From the NCBI GenBank assembly GCA_963751455.1, contig CAVVUN010000015.1:320001-384000 (forward strand): a stretch of DNA of 64,000 bases, given 5' to 3'. How positions within the stretch are numbered: position 1 is the first letter of the stretch; the number at the start of each line of letters is the position of its first letter. The stretch is from Nitrospirota bacterium. Its GTDB lineage: Bacteria; Nitrospirota; UBA9217. Below, in pieces: positions 1,419 through 22,162 of this stretch. Made by a program: the position numbers and the translations under genes. Below the pieces are notes generated by a model. The model saw only the letters and a list, made by a program, of their open reading frames with translations. It ran no database searches and had not been told where the DNA came from.

Positions 1419-4400
1419 ATGAAAGTCTTCAGACCGTATTCCACGCGTCTTATTTTCGTGATCCTGATATGCCTGGGACTTGCATTTGCCCTTGGTCGAA
1501 CACTCTCGCTCCAAGCCCAGGATACGACGCTTTTGGGAAGCATAGCGCTGGACAAAAAAATAGACATGGTGGCGCTCGCGCCGAATACGGGACTGGCCTA
1601 CGGCATACGATCTGAAGGCAAAACCCTTTCTATATTCGACCTCAAAACATACATAGTAAAAAATACAATCAAGCTTGATAGAAAACCGACTTTCATCGCC
1701 GTAGATCCCTCTACGAACATAGTGTATGTGACTGCAAAGAACGATAAAGGGGAAGGTCTGCTTTATACCTACGACTCCAACGGAAAAGTTGCGTCGATTC
1801 CTATCCCGAGAGAGCCACAGGGCATTGCAATCGATTCGGAAAGGAAAGAGGCCGTAATTGCGCTCGGGAAGGATAAGCAACTCCTAATCCTCGAGCTCGA
1901 TAAGCTAACTACAGTAAAAACAATCACCCTGCCTCAAAGACCGAGGACAATTTCCCTTGACGACGATTCCAGCCGTGCTGTGGTTGTCGCCGGAGAGGCC
2001 GAAGGTGAGGGCAAGCAGGACAGGATACTCGTCATCGACCTCTCTGCTGGAACAATTCTCCAAAACATCAACATCCAGAGGGAAATAGAAGCCCTGTCAG
2101 TAGATGCAGAAAAGGACGCAGCCGTCGCGGTCTCGAAGAACGAGGTCAACGTAATCGACATAAACACCGGGACAATCCTTGCAACTTTTAAGGCGGACGA
2201 TGCGGAAGGCGTCGACATCAACCAATCTACACATACCACGGTCATAACCGGCAGCGAGGGGTACGTTCTTCATGATTTAAATTCATCCAAGCAAGATTAC
2301 TATCCGCTTGGTTACGAGACGAAAGCCGTGTCGATTGACAGATACAGAAATACGGCTCTTTTGGGCGCAAAGGACAAGGTAGTCGAAGTCCAGCTTCCCA
2401 ATCCTGTGCCGACGATTACAAACATTGCGCCTAAATTTACAAGAATGGGTGATCCGGGCGTTACCCTCAAAGTCGAAGGCGAACGGTTCATTACGACCTC
2501 AATTGTTAAGTTTAACAACAGTAATATCGAGACTGTGTTTAAAAATGATAAAGAGCTTGAAGCATTCATTCCAGCAAGCCTGATTACGGAGCCGGGTACA
2601 GCGTCCATAACTGTCACGAATCCATTGCCTATGGGAGGGACATCCGAACCTTATCCCTTCATCATCCAGTATCCGACACCATTGATCGCTTCGCTATCAC
2701 CGGATTCGGTGCCGGCAAAAAGTCCGGATTTCACGCTCACTGTTGCCGGCTCGTTTGTACCTGGGAATACGGTAATCTTTAACTCGCATAACCTGCAAAC
2801 AGCCTATGGAAACGCTACTACATTAACTGCCGTTGTTCCATCATCATTGATTCAAACAAAAGGAGTTTACCCGGTCGCGGTCATGACCCCGGATGGGCAA
2901 AGCTCGAACCTGCTCTACTTTACAATCACGGACACGTTGCCGGTTATATCGGGTTTCTCTCCCACGGAAGGTCCTTCCGGTACCCTGGTCACGATAGTCG
3001 GCGCAAACTTCAGCAAAACTCCGACAACAGTTTCTTTTAACGGGACCCCAACGGTAGTAGCGAGCCTGTCAGATGCGGAAATCAAGGTAACGGTTCCGCC
3101 CGGTGCCAAGACCGGTCCGATAACGGTAAAAACTGCGGTCGGAAGCACGGAGAGCAGTACTCCGTTTACCGCACGTTTGAGACAGAATTTTGCTCTCTCC
3201 GTGAGCCCGCAAAGTTTAAATATCCCTGCGGATGGAAGCGCATCAGTGGCCGTTAGCCTAGTAGATACAGGTGGCGAGCCATTTACGGGACTGGTGAGAT
3301 TGGCGATCAATAGCGGCCCGCAAGGAATCACCGGAGTGTTCAATCCTGAATATATCTCCCTTAACCAGTCCTCGCTCCTGACCCTGTCTCAAGCCAGTTC
3401 AGGGAGTATAACGGTACAAGGGACTTCAAGCATCAGTGGGACTGCAACTGCCAGGACAGCCATCGTTACGCTCAATCAAATCGCAGCCGGAACAACAATT
3501 TTACGTGGACAGGTACTTGCCTCAAAAGATGCCAATCCTATTCCCGGCGTTATCGTGAAGTTAGGATCATTGACCGTGCAGACAGATAGCGCAGGTAACT
3601 TTCTATTTACAAATCCACCATTGGGTAGTCAGGTAATTACCATAGACGGAGATACGGCGAACCATGACGACATAACCTATCCGTCTGCGATACCGGTTGC
3701 CGTCAATATAAGTGCGGGCAGTGATAATGTGCTACCCTATCCAATTTTTTTACATGAAGTGAAGACAAATTTTTTCACTCAGATTAATCCTTTAACCGAT
3801 ACCATCGTAACCGATCCAGAGATTCCGAATTATGAAATGTTTATCCCTGCAGGAACCGTAATCACCGGATTGGATGGACAGCCGAATACAAAGGTGTCCG
3901 TTAAACCCGTTCCTATTGACCGCGTTCCCATTTCTAGACCCCCCGATGGCGTCTATGCAACGGAGATTTACATGTATTACTTCTTCAAGCCTGGAGGTGG
4001 TACGCCATCACAACCGATTCCCGTCAAGATGCCTAATAACTTTCAGGCCGATCCTGGTACAAGAGCTCAGCTCTGGTATTATGATGAATCATTCACTCCT
4101 GATGCAAATTCCAATCAATGGAAACCATTTGGCATGGGAACAGTCAGCAGCGATGGAAGGAATATCATTCCCGATCCCGGTGTTGGTATACCCAAGTTCT
4201 GCTGCGGTGCTAGTTTTGCTGCTAGTTCCCCGGTCGGCGGCCCTTCACCAAGCCCACCTGATAGCGGCATCTCTCAAGGGAGTGGAGGCAGCCCAGGAGG
4301 GTACAGCACAGGAGGTAGCTCGGGTAGTGGCAGTTACGGAGGTGGGGGAAGCTCTGGCGGTAGTGGCAGCTCCGGAAGCAGCGGCGGGGGCGGAGGTACA

Positions 4401-7400
4401 ACCAACTGCAAGAACAAAGTTGGCGACCCTGTTGACCCATACAGCGGAATGTTTACTTATGAAAAAGATGATATCGGTTATCCAGCCCCATCTAACCTTA
4501 CTTTGAGACGGTATTATGATTCCGGAAATACTGTTGTGGGATCGTTCGGAAGAGGGACAACCAGTAATTTTAACCATAATCTGCAAGGGTCCGGCGATGC
4601 ATTAACATATATACCACCCGAAGGCGGAAGATATATCTTTTCAAAGAATGCTGACGGAAGTTTTTCAAATATAAACTATCCATTTCTGCGTGGAGTGAGA
4701 GCATATCTGAAGGATGACGGTACAAGGACGTTGAAATTTAAAAATGGAGATGTTTATACCTTTGATACAGCCGGAAGGGTCACTGCAATAAGAAGTCTGA
4801 ATGACTACTTGATTAATATAACAAGGGATGGTTTTGGAAATATTACCGGTCTCAACGACAGCTTTGGAAGAGCGTTTTTTATATCAAGTACTAATGTTCA
4901 AGTGGGGAGCTCAATATTTACATTGGTTGAGAGAGTCACAGACGCGATGGGACGGCAAGTTGGCTATGCGTATGACAGCCTGGCAAGATTGACATCCGTT
5001 ATCATGCCTGACGGCAGTAAAATTATATACTCGTACAGTGCAAACAGTAGACTAGCTTCGATAACTAATCCGCGCGGATACGTTGAGGTTACGAACCAAT
5101 ACGATTCTGCAGGAAGAGTAATTAGCCAGACACATGCGGACGGGGGAATTTTTAAGATAGATTATTCGGTTGTAGGCGGCATCGTTACAGAAACTCGTGT
5201 GACAGAACCTAACGGCGGCGTAACGATTTATCGATTTAACGGTTTGGGTTACAGAACCGAGGTTACGAATCCGTATGGCCAGAAGACAACATACGGCAGA
5301 GAGTTCAGTACGAACAATTCGAATTCGGTCACAGATCCGCTCGGCAGAACCACGACATTTACTTATGATTCCAATGGCAACACTACGTCAGTGACGGATC
5401 CAGGAGGGCATGTAACTACTTACGAGTATCATCCTATATTTGACAAGCCCACAAAGATTACGGACGCCATTGGCAATGTTTTGAGCCTTACGTATGATGA
5501 GAAAGGAAACCTCATCAATATCTTATCTCCTAAGTCGGAACTAACTACGATCGAATACAACGAGAACGGTTTGCCGATATCAATATTGGACGCTTTGGGT
5601 AATACAGCGAAATTTGAGTATGATGAATATGGTAATCTTGTAAAGACCACAGACCCGCTCGGGAATTCAGCAAAAAAAGAATATGATGCAATCGGCAGAT
5701 TGATTAAAGCAACAGACCCGACCGGAAAAACAAACATTTTCTCGTATGACGATTTAAACCGAATAAAGGACATTGTAGATGCACTAAACAACAAATCTTT
5801 TTTCACTTACGATGAGAATGGAAATCTTCTTACTGTAACAGATGCAAAGAACCGGAGGATTACATATTCTTATAACTCCAGAGATAAAATGATAAGCATG
5901 ATAGATCAACTCGGTAAAACCGAATCATATAATTATGACCAGGAAGACAATCTCATATCTGTAACCGACAGAAAAGGTCAAACAACTTCATATACGTATG
6001 ATCTTATGAAGCGAATTACCAGTGCCACATACACTGATGGTAGTTCTAAAATCTATACCTATGACGCTATCGGCAGACTGATTTATATCAATGACTCTAT
6101 TTCAGGTCCAATAGAATATATCTACGGGAACACCGGGTGTGCAGCATGCGGAGGGGCGATTGATAAAATCATAAAGGAAATAACGCCGCTCGGGAGTATA
6201 AGCTATACATATGACGCACTTGGACGTCGCGAGAGCATGACCGTTGCAGGTCAACCGACAGTGGCTTACCTTTATGATGCTAACAGCCGTTTGAGGGAAA
6301 TAAATGCAATCATAAATGGGGCGATTGCGAAATTCGATTTGCAACATGACGCTCTCGGCCGAAGGACATCTCTCACAGTGCCGAATGGTGTAACAACAGC
6401 ATATGGTTATGATAATGCAAGCAGGTTATTAAATCTTAATTATAGTAACTCAGTAAATGAAATACTTGAATCAATCAGCTATACATATGACGCCAACAGC
6501 GTCAGAACAAGCATGAGCCGAGAAGGAGTAAGTTCTTTGTTGCCCGGACCAGCCGCGAATATTACTTACAATCAGGCAAACCAGTTATTAACTTTCAATG
6601 ATAAGAGCATCTCATATAACGAAAACGGTAATATAACGTCAGTAGCTACTTCATGCGGTACGACTACTTACACATGGAATGCAAGGAATAAACTAGTTGG
6701 TATTGATGGTTACAATTCTGATTGTTCGGCCCTGTCTGCATCGTTTAAATACGATGCCATCGACCGCAGAATTGAGAAGACTGTTAATGGGCAGACCATT
6801 AGGTATCTTTATGACGGATTGGACATAGTTCAGGAAATAACAGGTGGAACGGTAACTGCTAACTACATCCAATCATTAAACATTGATGAACCATTGGTCA
6901 GATTAAACTCAGATGGAACCGTACGTTTCTATCAAGCAGACGCATTAGGTTCTATAATCGCTCTTACGGATGAAAATGGGATTATCAAAACCCAATATGC
7001 ATACGATCCATTCGGTAACGTCGCTTTATTAGGCGCTGCTACCGACAATGCATTGCAATATACTGCACGAGAAAATGATGGGACAGGTTTATACTATTAC
7101 AGAGCGAGATATTACAGCCCTGAACTCCAACGATTCATAAGCGAAGACCCGATTGGATTGTTGGGCGGGATAAATAAATTCGGCTATGTGGCTAATAATC
7201 CAGTCAACTTTATTGATCCTAAAGGAAAGAGCGCAGGGGCGCATATCGTCATTGAGGTGATTATTAAAATACTTATGCCTACTAACGTCGGTGAAGGTGA
7301 GGATCAAATGGTACAAGACCGCGAAAGGCAAGACACTTACCGTCGTATAGACCAATTGGGAGAAGATATTCAAGACGATAAAAAACGACTAGATCAATTA

Positions 7401-7442
7401 ATTAAAGATGAGGAAAAACGATGTGGGGAAAAATATCAGTAG
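1419..7442 (+). CDS. rhs: Large Rhs/YD-repeat protein: signal/TM segment, YVTN-like beta-propeller, IPT/TIG repeats, carboxypeptidase-regulatory-like domain, Gly/Ser linker, DUF6531-like region, YD repeats, Rhs core, short C-terminal tip
   Basis: GDPVDPYSG motif; numerous YxYD..GR repeats; Rhs-core signature YYYRARYY...RFISEDPIG...YVANNPVNFIDPKG followed by about 71 aa. Confidence 0.92.
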   Translation: MKVFRPYSTRLIFVILICLGLAFALGRTLSLQAQDTTLLGSIALDKKIDMVALAPNTGLAYGIRSEGKTLSIFDLKTYIVKNTIKLDRKPTFIAVDPSTNIVYVTAKNDKGEGLLYTYDSNGKVASIPIPREPQGIAIDSERKEAVIALGKDKQLLILELDKLTTVKTITLPQRPRTISLDDDSSRAVVVAGEAEGEGKQDRILVIDLSAGTILQNINIQREIEALSVDAEKDAAVAVSKNEVNVIDINTGTILATFKADDAEGVDINQSTHTTVITGSEGYVLHDLNSSKQDYYPLGYETKAVSIDRYRNTALLGAKDKVVEVQLPNPVPTITNIAPKFTRMGDPGVTLKVEGERFITTSIVKFNNSNIETVFKNDKELEAFIPASLITEPGTASITVTNPLPMGGTSEPYPFIIQYPTPLIASLSPDSVPAKSPDFTLTVAGSFVPGNTVIFNSHNLQTAYGNATTLTAVVPSSLIQTKGVYPVAVMTPDGQSSNLLYFTITDTLPVISGFSPTEGPSGTLVTIVGANFSKTPTTVSFNGTPTVVASLSDAEIKVTVPPGAKTGPITVKTAVGSTESSTPFTARLRQNFALSVSPQSLNIPADGSASVAVSLVDTGGEPFTGLVRLAINSGPQGITGVFNPEYISLNQSSLLTLSQASSGSITVQGTSSISGTATARTAIVTLNQIAAGTTILRGQVLASKDANPIPGVIVKLGSLTVQTDSAGNFLFTNPPLGSQVITIDGDTANHDDITYPSAIPVAVNISAGSDNVLPYPIFLHEVKTNFFTQINPLTDTIVTDPEIPNYEMFIPAGTVITGLDGQPNTKVSVKPVPIDRVPISRPPDGVYATEIYMYYFFKPGGGTPSQPIPVKMPNNFQADPGTRAQLWYYDESFTPDANSNQWKPFGMGTVSSDGRNIIPDPGVGIPKFCCGASFAASSPVGGPSPSPPDSGISQGSGGSPGGYSTGGSSGSGSYGGGGSSGGSGSSGSSGGGGGTTNCKNKVGDPVDPYSGMFTYEKDDIGYPAPSNLTLRRYYDSGNTVVGSFGRGTTSNFNHNLQGSGDALTYIPPEGGRYIFSKNADGSFSNINYPFLRGVRAYLKDDGTRTLKFKNGDVYTFDTAGRVTAIRSLNDYLINITRDGFGNITGLNDSFGRAFFISSTNVQVGSSIFTLVERVTDAMGRQVGYAYDSLARLTSVIMPDGSKIIYSYSANSRLASITNPRGYVEVTNQYDSAGRVISQTHADGGIFKIDYSVVGGIVTETRVTEPNGGVTIYRFNGLGYRTEVTNPYGQKTTYGREFSTNNSNSVTDPLGRTTTFTYDSNGNTTSVTDPGGHVTTYEYHPIFDKPTKITDAIGNVLSLTYDEKGNLINILSPKSELTTIEYNENGLPISILDALGNTAKFEYDEYGNLVKTTDPLGNSAKKEYDAIGRLIKATDPTGKTNIFSYDDLNRIKDIVDALNNKSFFTYDENGNLLTVTDAKNRRITYSYNSRDKMISMIDQLGKTESYNYDQEDNLISVTDRKGQTTSYTYDLMKRITSATYTDGSSKIYTYDAIGRLIYINDSISGPIEYIYGNTGCAACGGAIDKIIKEITPLGSISYTYDALGRRESMTVAGQPTVAYLYDANSRLREINAIINGAIAKFDLQHDALGRRTSLTVPNGVTTAYGYDNASRLLNLNYSNSVNEILESISYTYDANSVRTSMSREGVSSLLPGPAANITYNQANQLLTFNDKSISYNENGNITSVATSCGTTTYTWNARNKLVGIDGYNSDCSALSASFKYDAIDRRIEKTVNGQTIRYLYDGLDIVQEITGGTVTANYIQSLNIDEPLVRLNSDGTVRFYQADALGSIIALTDENGIIKTQYAYDPFGNVALLGAATDNALQYTARENDGTGLYYYRARYYSPELQRFISEDPIGLLGGINKFGYVANNPVNFIDPKGKSAGAHIVIEVIIKILMPTNVGEGEDQMVQDRERQDTYRRIDQLGEDIQDDKKRLDQLIKDEEKRCGEKYQ

Positions 7443-10460: not shown

Positions 10461-10970
10461 ATGAACCACAGAGGTTTCACACTCATGGAACTTGTGATGG
10501 TCCTGATTCTGATCGGCATCATCGCAGTATTTGCCGCACCAAGGATGCCTGACATCACCTCCACGAATGCGGACGCATTCAAAGACAAGCTGCGAGCGGA
10601 TATTCGTTACGCGCAGAACCTTGCCATGAGCCGGAATCAGAGATGCAGGGTGTATTTCAACACAGCGCCCTCTCCTGTCCCTGACGGATATGCCGTTGTG
10701 AATGATCTAGATGGGGATGCTATTTGGGGTGAAGCCGGTGAATTTGCCATGGATCCTGCAGGAACCGGAAATTTGAGCGTTGTGTTGAATACGGGAGATT
10801 ATTCAAACATTACCATTAGCACGGGCGCTTGCGTTCCTGCAGTCGGTGGTTTCACGGAATTTAATTCATTGGGTGTTTCTACAACTGGTGGGGGAGCTAT
10901 CACGGTTTGCGCGAACGGTGTCGCCGTGGGGGCGGTGGTGATTGCGGCAGAGACGGGGGCGGTGAACTGA
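10461..10970 (+). CDS. Minor pilin (MshC/GspH/FimT-like)
   Basis: RG|FTLMELVMVLILIGIIAVFAAP; LRADIRYAQNLAM motif. Confidence 0.85.
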   Translation: MNHRGFTLMELVMVLILIGIIAVFAAPRMPDITSTNADAFKDKLRADIRYAQNLAMSRNQRCRVYFNTAPSPVPDGYAVVNDLDGDAIWGEAGEFAMDPAGTGNLSVVLNTGDYSNITISTGACVPAVGGFTEFNSLGVSTTGGGAITVCANGVAVGAVVIAAETGAVN

Positions 10971-10972
10971 TC

Positions 10973-11004
10973 GAATGCGGAGTTCGGAATGCGGAGTGCG
11001 GAAT
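10973..11004. repeat. Heptamer tandem repeat (AATGCGG/AGTGCGG/AGTTCGG)
   Basis: GAATGCGGAGTTCGGAATGCGGAGTGCGGAAT; same family at 13138-13229 and 60593-60627. Confidence 0.8.
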
Positions 11005-11267
11005 CAGGATCAGACGGTATTTAGTCATCGTGCTTAGCTATTGAGCTTCTCGGTGATAAGCAGAGGTAAAGCGTCTCGAACGGAAAGAATATTCTTCCAC
11101 AGAAGGCACAAAAGACACAGAGAACTAATAAACAAGATTTTGATTTATGAATCGGATTTTCTTTGTTGCGATGAAAGAGTGAGGGAATTAATACTCATCC
11201 ATTGAGTATTTTTACTCAACCATTGAGTAAATTATTGATATTTAATCGGAATGACATATTTGGGAGA

Positions 11268-11711
11268 ATGAAGATCGGAAGAACAGAAGGTTTTACCCTC
11301 ATTGAAACCATCATTACGCTTGTCGTGCTCTCGATAGCGGCTGTGGGAGTGCTCTCAGTCTTCACCACCGGTATGAAGGGAAGCGCGGACCCGCTTCTTA
11401 TCGAACAGGCCACGCAGTTGGCGCAGAGAACTATGGAGGAGCGCGTAATCGGCCTGAAATTGTCGAATGGATTTAACGCAGTCCAGGACGTTGCCGCAGC
11501 GGCATTCGCAGCTCCATTTGCCGGTTTTTCCTCTGCCGTTGACGCAACGTGCGTTGACGTAAATTTTGCAAATGATCAGGCCGCTCCGGGATACAATCTC
11601 GATGGTTCCTGCAATCAGGCAGGGTTCGCCAGGAACTATAAAAGAGCGGTTGTCACGGTCAGTTGGACCGGCGGCGACGTCGTCCTTACGACCGTTGTTG
11701 GAGATTTTTAA
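11268..11711 (+). CDS. Minor pilin (MshD/PilV-like)
   Basis: ATG 11268 after GGGAGA; EG|FTLIETIITLVVLSIAAVG; C-terminal KRAVVTVSW. Confidence 0.85.
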   Translation: MKIGRTEGFTLIETIITLVVLSIAAVGVLSVFTTGMKGSADPLLIEQATQLAQRTMEERVIGLKLSNGFNAVQDVAAAAFAAPFAGFSSAVDATCVDVNFANDQAAPGYNLDGSCNQAGFARNYKRAVVTVSWTGGDVVLTTVVGDF

Positions 11712-11717
11712 TGGGCT

Positions 11718-11888
11718 GTAGGGCAAGGCTTCAGCCTTGCAGATTCTGTCAGGACAGAAAAGAAGAAAAGTACATGCAACCCTGAAGGGTTGCCCTACAA
11801 AAACAAAAAAGGACATGTAGGGCAAGGACTTCGACGAGACTTCGGCGTGAGCTCAGTCGAACGCTCAGTCGAGACGCTTCAGCCTTGC
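11718..11888. repeat. GTAG-family REP cluster upstream of RAYT
   Basis: REP-A GTAGGGCAAGGCTTCAGCCTTGC (11718-11740); inverted REP-B GCAACCCTGAAGGGTTGCCCTAC (11776-11798); interrupted REP-A (11817-11888). Confidence 0.9.
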
Positions 11889-11900
11889 AGAATCAAGGCA

Positions 11901-13139
11901 ATGATAACTACAACGTTCAAAAAAAGGATACGTCTCAAGGGCTTTGATTATCAGGGCTGTTTTCGATATTCCTTGACTTTTTGTACGAGAAACAAGTTGC
12001 CTCATTTCAAAGACGACCTAACCGTACTTAATACCGCACGGATACTGCAAGAAACGGCAAAGACGCATGATTTCAAAATATGGACTTGTTGCTTCATGCC
12101 GGACCATGTTCATGTTTTGGTAGAGGGTGAAAGTCAAACTGCTGATTTAAAAAAATTCGTGTCCGCTTTCAAACAAAAGAGCGGTTACTGGTTTAGGCAA
12201 ATGCAAAAACAAGCAACCCTGAAGGGTTGCCCTACAAAAGATGAAATAGAAATTAATGTAGGGCAAGGATTTCGACAAGCTCAGTCGAGACGCTTCAGCC
12301 TTGCGAAATCAGCAACCTTAAAAGGTTGCCCTACAAAAGAGGGGAAAAACGTTAATGGGCAAGGCTTGAGCCTTGCGAAGATGCGGGGCGATGAGCTCTG
12401 GCAGATAAATTATTATGACCATGTTTTGAGAAGCGACGAGGCAACAGAAAAGGTCGCGCGATATATTTTGGAGAATCCCGTAAGGAAAGGACTCGTGGAG
12501 GATTTTCGTAATTATCCCTTTTCATGGTGTCAAGTTTTTGATTTTGTAGGGCAAGGCTTCAGCCTTGCAGATCATGCAACCCTGAAGGGTTGCCCTACGA
12601 AAGACGTGAAAGCAACTCTAAAGGGTTGCCCTACAAAACATAAAAAGAACGAGGTCGGTTTTACGCTTATCGAGATCGTGATGACGATCGTGATCGTGAG
12701 TATCATTGCGGGTGTCTCCGGCATGATCATCGCATCCGGGGTAAGGGCTTATTCGGACGAGCAAGCCCGGAGTGATGTACATTATCAAGCCAGGCTTGCG
12801 ATGGAGAGAATGACAAGAGAAATCCGCACGATGAGGGGCAGGGCCGCTGCACCGGACGATATCCCCAATATGGCTGCAAATGCGCTGGGATTCTATGACA
12901 TCACTGGCGTGCTCGTGGAATTTGATCTTAGTGGGACCAATCTTCGGCGCCAGCAGGATGGAGGCGGATGGCAAACTCTGGCGACGAACATTGCGGGACC
13001 TCTTTTTGAATATTACGATAACGCCGGCAATCCGGGCGCCGCGCAAAACGCATTGTGGTACGTGGAAATCGGTTTAACGGCTACGCAGGGTTCTGAGTCT
13101 CTTCAAATGAACACGCGCGTGCATCCTAGGAACTTTTAA
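11901..13139 (+). CDS. In-frame fusion: REP-associated tyrosine transposase (RAYT, Y1/HUH) plus MshO/PilW-like minor pilin
   Basis: KKRIRLKGFDY, LTFCT, MPDHVHVL (HUH), LWQINYYDHVLR, YILENPVRKGLV, YPFS; no stop before NEVG|FTLIEIVMTIVIVSIIAG (Phe at 12660); pilin motif ARLAMERMTREIR. Confidence 0.8.
   Translation: MITTTFKKRIRLKGFDYQGCFRYSLTFCTRNKLPHFKDDLTVLNTARILQETAKTHDFKIWTCCFMPDHVHVLVEGESQTADLKKFVSAFKQKSGYWFRQMQKQATLKGCPTKDEIEINVGQGFRQAQSRRFSLAKSATLKGCPTKEGKNVNGQGLSLAKMRGDELWQINYYDHVLRSDEATEKVARYILENPVRKGLVEDFRNYPFSWCQVFDFVGQGFSLADHATLKGCPTKDVKATLKGCPTKHKKNEVGFTLIEIVMTIVIVSIIAGVSGMIIASGVRAYSDEQARSDVHYQARLAMERMTREIRTMRGRAAAPDDIPNMAANALGFYDITGVLVEFDLSGTNLRRQQDGGGWQTLATNIAGPLFEYYDNAGNPGAAQNALWYVEIGLTATQGSESLQMNTRVHPRNF
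12213..12376. repeat. Four REP palindromes inside the RAYT coding sequence
   Basis: REP-B 12213-12235 and 12312-12334 (translated ATLKGCPT); REP-A 12258-12304 with 24-nt insert; degenerate REP-A about 12355-12376. Confidence 0.9.
12546..12634. repeat. Three REPs forming the RAYT-pilin linker
   Basis: REP-A 12546-12568; REP-B 12576-12598 and 12612-12634; translated VGQGFSLA-DH-ATLKGCPT-KDVK-ATLKGCPT. Confidence 0.9.
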
Positions 13140-13229
13140 GTGCGGAGTGCGGAGCATCTGAGTGCGGAGTGGCGAGTGCGGAGTTCGGAGTGATAAGACT
13201 TTTAAATTCGAAATGCGAAATGCGAAACT
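13138..13229. repeat. Heptamer repeat array overlapping start of next pilin gene
   Basis: AGTGCGG/AGTTCGG units, then AAATTCG AAATGCG AAATGCG. Confidence 0.75.
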
Positions 13230-13867
13230 TGCGTCAGCAATCTTTAAGCAGGGGTCCGAATTCAAGGGGCGTTTCGATCATTGCCGCCATATTCATCATC
13301 GTCATCCTGGCGTTTATGGGAACGATGCTGGTTTCTCTCCTGAACACGGCCACTTTTTCGTCGCTCAATGACATGCAGTCCGCGCAGGCGCTTTACATAG
13401 CCGAGGGCGGGATCCAGAGGGCGCTGCGTTATTTGCAGCTTGAGGGTGGCAGGTGTCAGGACATAACAACAGTCGATGCGGCGTTGTTCACAAACATTGC
13501 CCTCGGCGACGGTGCTTTTACGGTCACGGCGATACTGTTTCGACAGGTTCCTTCTGAAAGATTAACGGTCGCGGTCAATGATGTGGCGGCGGCTATCTCC
13601 GCTACTGCAACAGCCGGTTATGCTCCAGCCGGCAGAATTTATATCCAAAATGATCCTCCGCCAGGAGCCGTAGGGACCGAGGCAATAGATTACACAAGTA
13701 TCAACGCCGTACTGAACACTTTTGATGGGTGCCGCAGGGGCATGGACGGCACGACCGCGTCCGCCCATAACGCCAACCGGCGCATTGTACAGAATCAATG
13801 CGACATCGTGTCAACCGGCTCTATCGGAAACGTACAGCGCCAGGTGCAGCTGAGTGTGCAGCAATGA
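13220..13867 (+). CDS. Minor pilin (MshP/PilX-like)
   Basis: RG|VSIIAAIFIIVILAFMG (no Glu5, typical of PilX/MshP); QSAQALYIAEGGIQRA; start uncertain. Confidence 0.8.
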   Translation: MRNLRQQSLSRGPNSRGVSIIAAIFIIVILAFMGTMLVSLLNTATFSSLNDMQSAQALYIAEGGIQRALRYLQLEGGRCQDITTVDAALFTNIALGDGAFTVTAILFRQVPSERLTVAVNDVAAAISATATAGYAPAGRIYIQNDPPPGAVGTEAIDYTSINAVLNTFDGCRRGMDGTTASAHNANRRIVQNQCDIVSTGSIGNVQRQVQLSVQQ

Positions 13868-13895: not shown

Positions 13896-14024
13896 GTAGG
13901 GCGACCCTTTAGGGTTGCTGCTGTTCCGGCGCTTTCAGCAAGGCTAAAGCCTTGCCCTACAAGTTTGGTTGCGGCCTACTGCCGCGCTATGATAACACCA
14001 GTCGTTTGTGAGACACTACACTAG
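13896..14024. mobile_element. Truncated MITE copy carrying a REP doublet (right end only)
   Basis: About 130 bp nearly identical to 16457-16585; ends GAGACACTACA-CTAG. Confidence 0.75.
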
Positions 14025-16139: not shown

Positions 16140-16206
16140 AGTCGGATATTAGAAGAGGGTGAAAACATAAGACGGGAATAGAGATGGCTATTTATTGAAC
16201 CGGAGA

Positions 16207-16347
16207 CTATTTAAAATAAAGCTTGAGCATGGCGAAGATAATGCCGGTGAGGACGCCGATCTGTCCAAGCCAGAATAAAAACATCCACTTAATGAGCTCT
16301 GACTTTATATTTGCAAGGTCTGCCTTTGCAGCAAGGATGTCCTTCAT
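16207..16347 (-). pseudogene. Fragment of a DUF1640/CCDC90-like coiled-coil membrane-anchored protein
   Basis: Manual translation MKDILAAKADLANIKSELIKWMFLFWLGQIGVLTGIIFAMLKLYFK* resembles that family's C-terminus. Confidence 0.5.
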
Positions 16348-16369: not shown

Positions 16370-16585
16370 CTAGTGTAGTGTCTCTTAAATGGACGGTGTT
16401 ATATGATGATTTCTCATCGAAAACTTATCTTCGCGTAAATATTTGCTGATGAATTTGTAGGGCGACCCTTTAGGGTTGCTGCTGTTCCGGCGCTTTCAGC
16501 AAGGCTAAAGCCTTGCCCTACAAGTTTGGCTGCGGCCTATTGCCGCGCTATGATAACACCAGTCGTTTGTGAGACACTACACTAG
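16370..16585. mobile_element. MITE with CTAG flanks and imperfect ~29-bp TIRs, carrying a GTAG REP doublet
   Basis: CTAG-TGTAGTGTCTC...GAGACACTACA-CTAG; TIR match extends to GGTGTTAT; internal REP-B and REP-A from 16457. Confidence 0.8.
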
Positions 16586-20357: not shown

Positions 20358-20448
20358 GTAGGGCAAGGCTTCAGCCTTGCTGATTATGCGAAAGGCAGCA
20401 ACTCCCCGCTTAATGCCTGCGGGGACAGGCTCTGAAGGGTTGCCCTAC
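20358..20448. repeat. REP doublet with 28-nt hairpin inserted in REP-B
   Basis: REP-A 20358-20380; REP-B 20398-20448 split by TCCCCGCTTAATGCCTGCGGGGACAGGC. Confidence 0.85.
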
Positions 20449-22084: not shown

Positions 22085-22162
22085 GTAGGGCAAGGCTTCA
22101 GCCTTGCATTCGGACGGTCTGCGTAATTCCACGTCCGGAAGCAACCCTAAAGGTTGCCCTAC
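22085..22162. repeat. REP doublet (REPIN-like)
   Basis: REP-A 22085-22107 and inverted REP-B 22141-22162. Confidence 0.9.

Follow-up and report, generated by a model that had tools for sequence, protein, structure and literature searches.

A RAYT transposase read through its REP array into an MshO-like minor pilin, in the position of a prepilin leader

RAYT transposases persist as single-copy genes, and their persistence is presented as an open question, the usual answer being an unknown benefit to the host (bioRxiv 10.1101/2021.07.10.451892). In E. coli TnpA-REP, activity is modulated by a C-terminal tail (PMC8266576). Type IV prepilins, as described in PMC10191384, are sent to the membrane by a hydrophobic stretch with the leader inside the cell. 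On that cytoplasmic side prepilin peptidase cleaves behind a Gly or Ala, with no other protein required; the length of the leader varies. Here we describe a bacterial gene in which a RAYT and a prepilin share one open frame.

The gene lies in a stretch of 64,000 nucleotides from a Nitrospirota contig (the window), in a pilus operon that also encodes a platform protein, several pilins, a secretin and an ATPase-like ORF. The Msh letters that we give to its genes (MshD-, MshO- and MshP-like) follow what we take to be the msh gene order. On the plus strand, a single stop-free frame runs from ATG 11901 to TAA 13137-13139 and encodes 412 amino acids, a RAYT followed by an MshO-like pilin; the same frame is open 5' of this ATG as well, back to the stop of the upstream MshD/PilV-like minor pilin (11202..11711, plus strand; TAA 11709-11711), which bounds the insert and whose orthologs precede the pilin in relatives. 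The N-terminal core of the RAYT (11901..12194) contains the HUH motif H69-V-H71 (nucleotides 12105-12113) and is followed by a REP-derived in-frame insert of 67 codons (12195..12395) and by the C-terminal core (12396..12539), with the guide-binding region W167 Q168 D173 H174 R177, the catalytic Y188 and N192, roles that we assigned after PMC6006769. Where a RAYT stop would be expected there is instead a read-through linker of 39 codons (12540..12656), in which the right-hand REP array (12546-12634) is followed by a basic tail. Gly253 (12657..12659) is the predicted prepilin peptidase cut site (G|FTLIE), on the strength of motif and profile matches, and the mature minor pilin of 159 amino acids plus stop follows (12660..13139); of the 63 other genomes in the family, 25 have an ortholog of it at 40-65% identity. 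The initial annotation had described a complete RAYT and a prepilin in one ORF, with the Gly of G|FTLIE at residue 253, and a REP-encoded, basic-ended linker between them; the open frame, the domain matches given below and the 39-codon array-bearing linker bear out both statements.

Both flanks of the RAYT carry GTAG-footed REP hairpins. To the left is a GTAG REP doublet, or REPIN (11718..11798; DNA fold z -4.9), followed by a REP left arm that is split by a second repeat type (11817..11888; repeat families D4, D5 and D8), a similar unit of which recurs at 12258-12304. Downstream of the fusion, an MshP/PilX-like pilin with short tandem repeats in its leader region (13169..13867, plus strand) is followed by a dispersed REPIN of the same family as the REPs of the fusion (13896..13960), with more copies or arms at 16457-16521, 20358-20380 and 22085-22107. 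The window holds several other elements. Short tandem repeats of GTGCGGA- and TTCGAAATGCG-type lie between pilin genes (10970-11010 and 13139-13230), a stretch resembling a small gene fragment lies beside the REPIN at 16457 (16140-16320, minus strand), and just 5' of the pilus operon an ORF of 2007 amino acids (1419-7442) shows, by eye, a YD/RHS-like repeat core and a short variable C-terminus.

By its core motifs, its flanking REPs and the dispersed REPINs the enzyme is a RAYT, and its partner has the sequence of a prepilin in all but its leader. Pfam places Y1_Tnp at residues 22-105 (53 bits, cut-off 23) and N_methyl (PF07963) at residues 253-272 (23 bits, cut-off 21.2); in NCBIfam, REP_Tyr_transpos NF047646 scores 93.5 bits (cut-off 80) and TIGR02532 is also over its cut-off. 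H69, H71, Y188 and N192 are invariant in the five full RAYTs aligned (5/5), and the C-terminal core aligns to residues 90-136 of E. coli TnpA-REP (4ER8). Cognate REPs and REPINs are dispersed in the genome, which has one gene of the fused clade. On the pilin side, a Gly precedes a hydrophobic helix with Glu5, as it does in the five other fusions scanned; the leader is not short, the Gly standing at residue 253. We also considered other identities. An IS200/IS605 transposase was rejected (NF033573 at 34.4 bits, below its cut-off of 55; no adjoining tnpB; single copy), as was an intein, given no Hint-type Pfam or NCBIfam match up to E 0.1 and no N-terminal extein.

A protein search recovered the same join in five further 90% clusters, at 50-56% identity, from JGI, ENA, NCBI and Logan assemblies; one of them (P0006) covers only the C-terminal part of the RAYT, and one close fused relative carries the source name Nitrospirae bacterium GWD2_57_9. 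Since a protein search can find only open frames, we added a DNA alignment scan with the RAYT alone and examined 45 loci, 42 from metagenomes and the best three of eight from genomes. Three of the 45 sit between MshD-like and MshO-like genes, and all three are in-frame fusions, two matching known clusters and one new (L027). With the window, the five clusters and L027 there are thus seven distinct fusions, four of which were ascertained as open frames. At the other 42 DNA loci, many on short contigs, msh neighbours are absent, and where the full gene could be parsed the RAYT stop mostly falls 22-30 residues after YIxxNP; none of the best three of eight distant genome-contig loci is in a pilus operon. 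The clade member closest to the window RAYT (P0144) ends after the linker with no pilin motif, on a contig of 1093 nucleotides, and may be an unfused member of the clade, its end being either that of the contig or a true stop. A phylum-wide RAYT profile search at E 1e-35 found none in 400 other genomes (at most eight candidates scored per genome), all ESM Atlas matches fell below 0.9, and the sets of viral contigs and plasmids gave no relative of the fusion.

These further proteins of the same architecture, for which the initial annotation had proposed a search, bear directly on the simplest alternative, an assembly indel near 12535-12545 that took away the RAYT stop. The stretch is T-rich and both other frames stop inside it, and the one DNA read run examined, with 6% of words and coverage of 4 of 30 bins, had nothing across the junction. 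But the same read-through frame recurs in six other divergent sequences from independent assemblies, which in effect refutes an artefact and leaves it a negligible chance. The fusion is almost certainly real and old.

In a tree of 155 RAYTs, the six full fused members group with three fragments in a single clade (support 99). Their core aligns over 92+48 amino acids without indels at 59-86% identity, with inserts of 7-71 amino acids and linkers of 32-77 amino acids across the clade. Among the four fused loci for which DNA was available, dN/dS of the RAYT core is 0.10-0.17 in three of six pairs (dS 1.5-2.2), the other three pairs being saturated, and the pilin helix is under similar purifying selection. 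The pilin would need no more than an open frame, so conservation of the RAYT core points to selection on the enzyme itself. The REP arms have one stop-bearing frame; the linkers read the other two and never that one, and an in-frame stop lies within 10 codons 5' of the RAYT start in three of the four DNA loci, a contrast drawn from few loci and from linkers of which four in seven were ascertained as open frames.

How translation of the pilin begins is a separate matter. It had been proposed from the sequence that no in-frame ATG lies between the end of the RAYT and the cleavage site, and indeed the closest is 92 codons before Gly253. The accompanying proposal that GTG 12606 is the sole alternative start held only in part: this codon has a weak SD-like site (-2.2 kcal/mol), but CTG 12582 is also present, and within the RAYT tail, where TTG 12468 is a further near-cognate codon, GTG 12495 has a better site (-5.4 kcal/mol). 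In 24 of 28 unfused orthologs an ATG lies no more than 36 codons from the Gly; at the fused DNA loci the closest in-frame ATG stands 92, 165, 6 (L027) and 37 (L029) codons before it. Just past the upstream stop, the window locus and L027 each have an ATG preceded by an SD-like site, from which a short ORF runs into a REP and stops there. In the window this ORF (11711..11785, plus strand; SD-like GGAG, -6.4 kcal/mol) is out of frame with the fusion and ends at a TGA within the REP, and it is possibly the orphaned original start of the pilin. A promoter and terminator scan gave results at chance level.

One reading of these start codons is that translation of the pilin begins inside the fusion at a near-cognate codon of its own (GTG 12606 or 12495), the RAYT-pilin chain being a side product. 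None of the four DNA loci shows an SD-like site ahead of the RAYT ATG (+1.9 to -3.3 kcal/mol; six operon genes range from -2.8 to -10.8). Each of these loci carries a near-cognate codon at a distance of 6-23 codons upstream of the Gly, L027 and L029 have an in-frame ATG besides, and an ordinary 18-residue leader would result from initiation at GTG 12606. On the other side, we found no internal start common to the four loci: the candidates differ in identity and position, and they sit in or directly behind strong hairpins. Internal initiation would also leave an open frame across seven linkers with no reason to exist, and a RAYT lacking its own stop would still require the prepilin peptidase PilD to leave the membrane even if the pilin started internally. 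We consider internal initiation unlikely.

The reading we prefer, and which we regard as probable on the evidence of sequence, is that RAYT and pilin are made as one chain that is cut by PilD after Gly253, yielding a normal pilin and a free cytoplasmic RAYT. It would have arisen by one old insertion into the mshD-mshO junction, in which the RAYT stop was lost and the pilin's own start displaced. The pilin helix would target the chain while the RAYT part stays inside the cell, the predicted cut would separate the two, and the released RAYT, bearing a REP-encoded tail of about 40 amino acids, would copy the REPINs of the genome. As a tail modulates the activity of TnpA-REP, the REP-encoded tail of the fused RAYT could matter. 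A two-domain prepilin peptidase (PilD) is encoded on contig C9 of the same genome, at about 239.5 kb. Since the pilin would be lost with any stop or frameshift in the RAYT, the element would be locked in until recombination of the segment or a deletion that leaves a start.

Large T18/T25 domains placed ahead of mature ComGC and ComGG gave a two-hybrid signal, and such fusions to the other minor pilins were not expressed (PMC8727766); in the open-access literature we found no case of PilD cutting behind a folded domain of 250 amino acids. This, together with a full chain laid out like a one-pass membrane protein, would suit a fusion that is made but stays uncut, the RAYT remaining tethered to the inner membrane at the base of the pilus, where it could act on incoming single-stranded DNA. 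The cleavage signal itself argues against tethering, since all seven fusions retain the G, F1 and E5 as well as a pre-site that is polar or basic, and so does purifying selection on the pilin helix as strong as that on the RAYT. An uncut pilin, moreover, could not enter the filament, as is well established (see also PMC10191384), and no second copy of the MshO-like pilin was found in the window genome. A permanently tethered enzyme is therefore highly improbable in our estimate. The initial annotation's account of the fusion's biology is supported in part: the fusion is genuine and, as we find, old and under selection, its class III signal is canonical and the peptidase is encoded. The likening to an intein would hold for harmless removal by a host protease and goes no further, as splicing is absent and homing finds no support here.

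That the leader region of this pilin tolerates foreign sequence is supported by the relatives. Leaders of unfused orthologs vary widely and many consist of short repeats, and one MshO-like ortholog (P0285) is called with a leader of 91 amino acids that has no known domain. In one relative (G041; L016:1046-1992), the mshD-mshO slot is taken by a nucleotidyltransferase gene whose stop is overlapped by the GTG start of the pilin. The leader of that pilin appears to resemble the start of a HEPN partner. Genes for DUF7718 and DUF5647 lie behind the pilin of G041. Repeats like those between the pilin genes of the window also make up the leaders in many unfused orthologs, as well as those of further prepilins encoded on contigs C1 and C15.

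The pilin is present in 26 of 64 family genomes, and the long fused frame occurs only in that of the window (G000), the other 25 having an ordinary pilin. The fused RAYT is always in the same operon slot, is found in one of the 26 pilin-bearing family genomes, and is flanked by genes whose trees conflict. In the pilin tree, fused tips are scattered among unfused ones (seven changes for seven tips; a single clade is rejected, p-AU 1e-44), and RAYT and pilin identities are uncorrelated (rho 0.01, 15 pairs); these pilin and msh trees leave out L017, which is distant, and L084, a duplicate of L010. Such scatter, with right junctions of two styles, is what would be expected if the RAYT cassette were a homing-type element that repeatedly entered the mshO leader of different lineages. 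The same scatter is explained by recombination at the level of genes: the mshC, mshD, mshO and mshP trees disagree with one another for unfused loci too, so that the operon is a recombination mosaic for which one origin plus recombination is enough. In the mshD tree all four fused loci fall within one group of nine among 30 loci (94/99), which speaks against repeated insertion, but they do not form a clade there (p-AU 0.0004). Homing is further disfavoured by the failure to find cassette relatives in viral contigs or plasmids, by reports that RAYTs do not move themselves (bioRxiv 10.1101/2021.07.10.451892) and by a relic of loss described next, and we consider it very unlikely. Apart from the fusion, the strong tree conflict over the msh-like operon (L001-L016, L026-L029, L077-L088) points to gene-by-gene shuffling of minor pilins.

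The relic is found in an unfused relative (G027; loci L008 and L094), in which a decayed remnant of RAYT tail and REP linker, 259 nucleotides before the pilin, serves as a leader of 35 codons. As a protein profile the RAYT tail and linker match this leader at E 2e-5, the next best of 28 leaders reaching E 1.1, and by blastn its right junction is identical to that of the window at 22 of 24 nucleotides, at the same distance from the Gly; a DNA profile performs less well than either, matching at E 0.13 only. The in-frame ATG of G027 stands 35 codons before the Gly, and its first three codons are those of the window RAYT, a match that could be due to chance. Taken as sequence, the relic suggests loss of the RAYT by deletion. 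No RAYT of the fused clade was found in twelve REP-bearing or relic regions of six relatives.

The genome of the window contains 107 REP arms of the fusion's kind, grouped in 45 clusters of which about 25 are near-identical doublets, against none in a shuffled contig. Among 33 Y1 matches in the genome, the fused gene is the only one with such arms at a distance of 1.6 kb or less; the RAYT next closest to it is associated with different REPs. The clusters are also concentrated around the fusion, 6 of the 42 others lying within 20 kb of it (p 5e-7). Such a REP population fits a working fused RAYT. It is no proof of that enzyme's activity, because one relative (G033) has 28 arms of the same family and no close RAYT in its assembly, and because similar arms flank most free-standing RAYTs; at least one arm of the family is present in 9 of 63 relatives. 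The MshO-like and MshP-like proteins of G033 are among the closest to those of the window. Elsewhere in the window genome, a free-standing RAYT with its own GTAG REPs lies between respiratory-oxidase-like genes (G000:C2:636800-637300, minus strand), and the 33 Y1_Tnp matches include about ten long open frames of 270-335 amino acids, some in tandem pairs on C1 and C15. A protein of 479 amino acids (P0011) shows, by eye, a RAYT-like segment behind a DNA-methyltransferase-like segment.

Release by PilD, if it occurs as is likely, would turn a disposable leader into a lasting home for a mobile-DNA enzyme. To the usual explanation of RAYT persistence it would add a testable alternative, that the enzyme is welded to a needed gene through a peptide that the cell discards, and the fusion offers a natural test of whether prepilin peptidase cuts behind a folded domain of 250 residues. 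There is a consequence for annotation as well: genes of this kind are labelled as transposase or pilin alone, and internal class III signals are overlooked. A much broader proposal, which we offer tentatively and think rather doubtful, is that prepilin leaders in general offer a safe harbour and that this RAYT clade is a specialised leader-dweller, released by PilD, with pilus assembly dependent on its frame, spreading among mshO alleles, and with REP cleavage tied to pilus expression so that the RAYT would be on when and where pili are built.

Compared with known systems, the enzyme is closest to the REPtrons of E. coli TnpA-REP (4ER8; NF047646), with which it shares the HUH/Tyr core, the WQ..DH..R region, flanking GTAG doublets, genome-wide REPINs and single copy; unlike REPtron RAYTs, it lacks its own stop, and its frame continues across the right REP array into that of a prepilin. 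In-frame REP insertions of variable length between the HUH and Tyr motifs are known from TnpA-Y1 subclass 2.4 and some of 2.8 (Quentin et al., PMC6006769), and the HVH, WQ and YIL.NP motifs of the fused RAYT resemble the subclass 2.7 row of a table in the same paper. The accessible part of that study describes no fusion to another gene for its subclasses and states that unexpectedly long proteins were discarded, and two of its supplements make no mention of pilin, fusion or Nitrospir. REPs in frame inside RAYTs were already published, and it is the RAYT-in-leader arrangement that appears to be new; in the open-access literature we found no RAYT-pilin fusion and no enzyme inside a prepilin leader. 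The gene also resembles repeat-derived in-frame extensions, in which palindromic repeats are translated within a host ORF (review PMC3184786), but the cases there are short repeats, whereas here a whole conserved enzyme is involved, within a portion of the protein predicted to be cut off. Its pilin half is like class III type IV prepilins in an MSHA-like operon, with G|F...E5, a hydrophobic helix, platform protein, secretin and ATPase (PMC10191384). Unlike in ordinary prepilins, the predicted leader is 253 residues long and holds a folded enzyme. The arrangement is like inteins and homing endonucleases in placing a mobile-DNA enzyme inside a host ORF, with a predicted post-translational removal that would spare the host protein; unlike inteins, it has no splicing domain, and removal would be by the host's own PilD.
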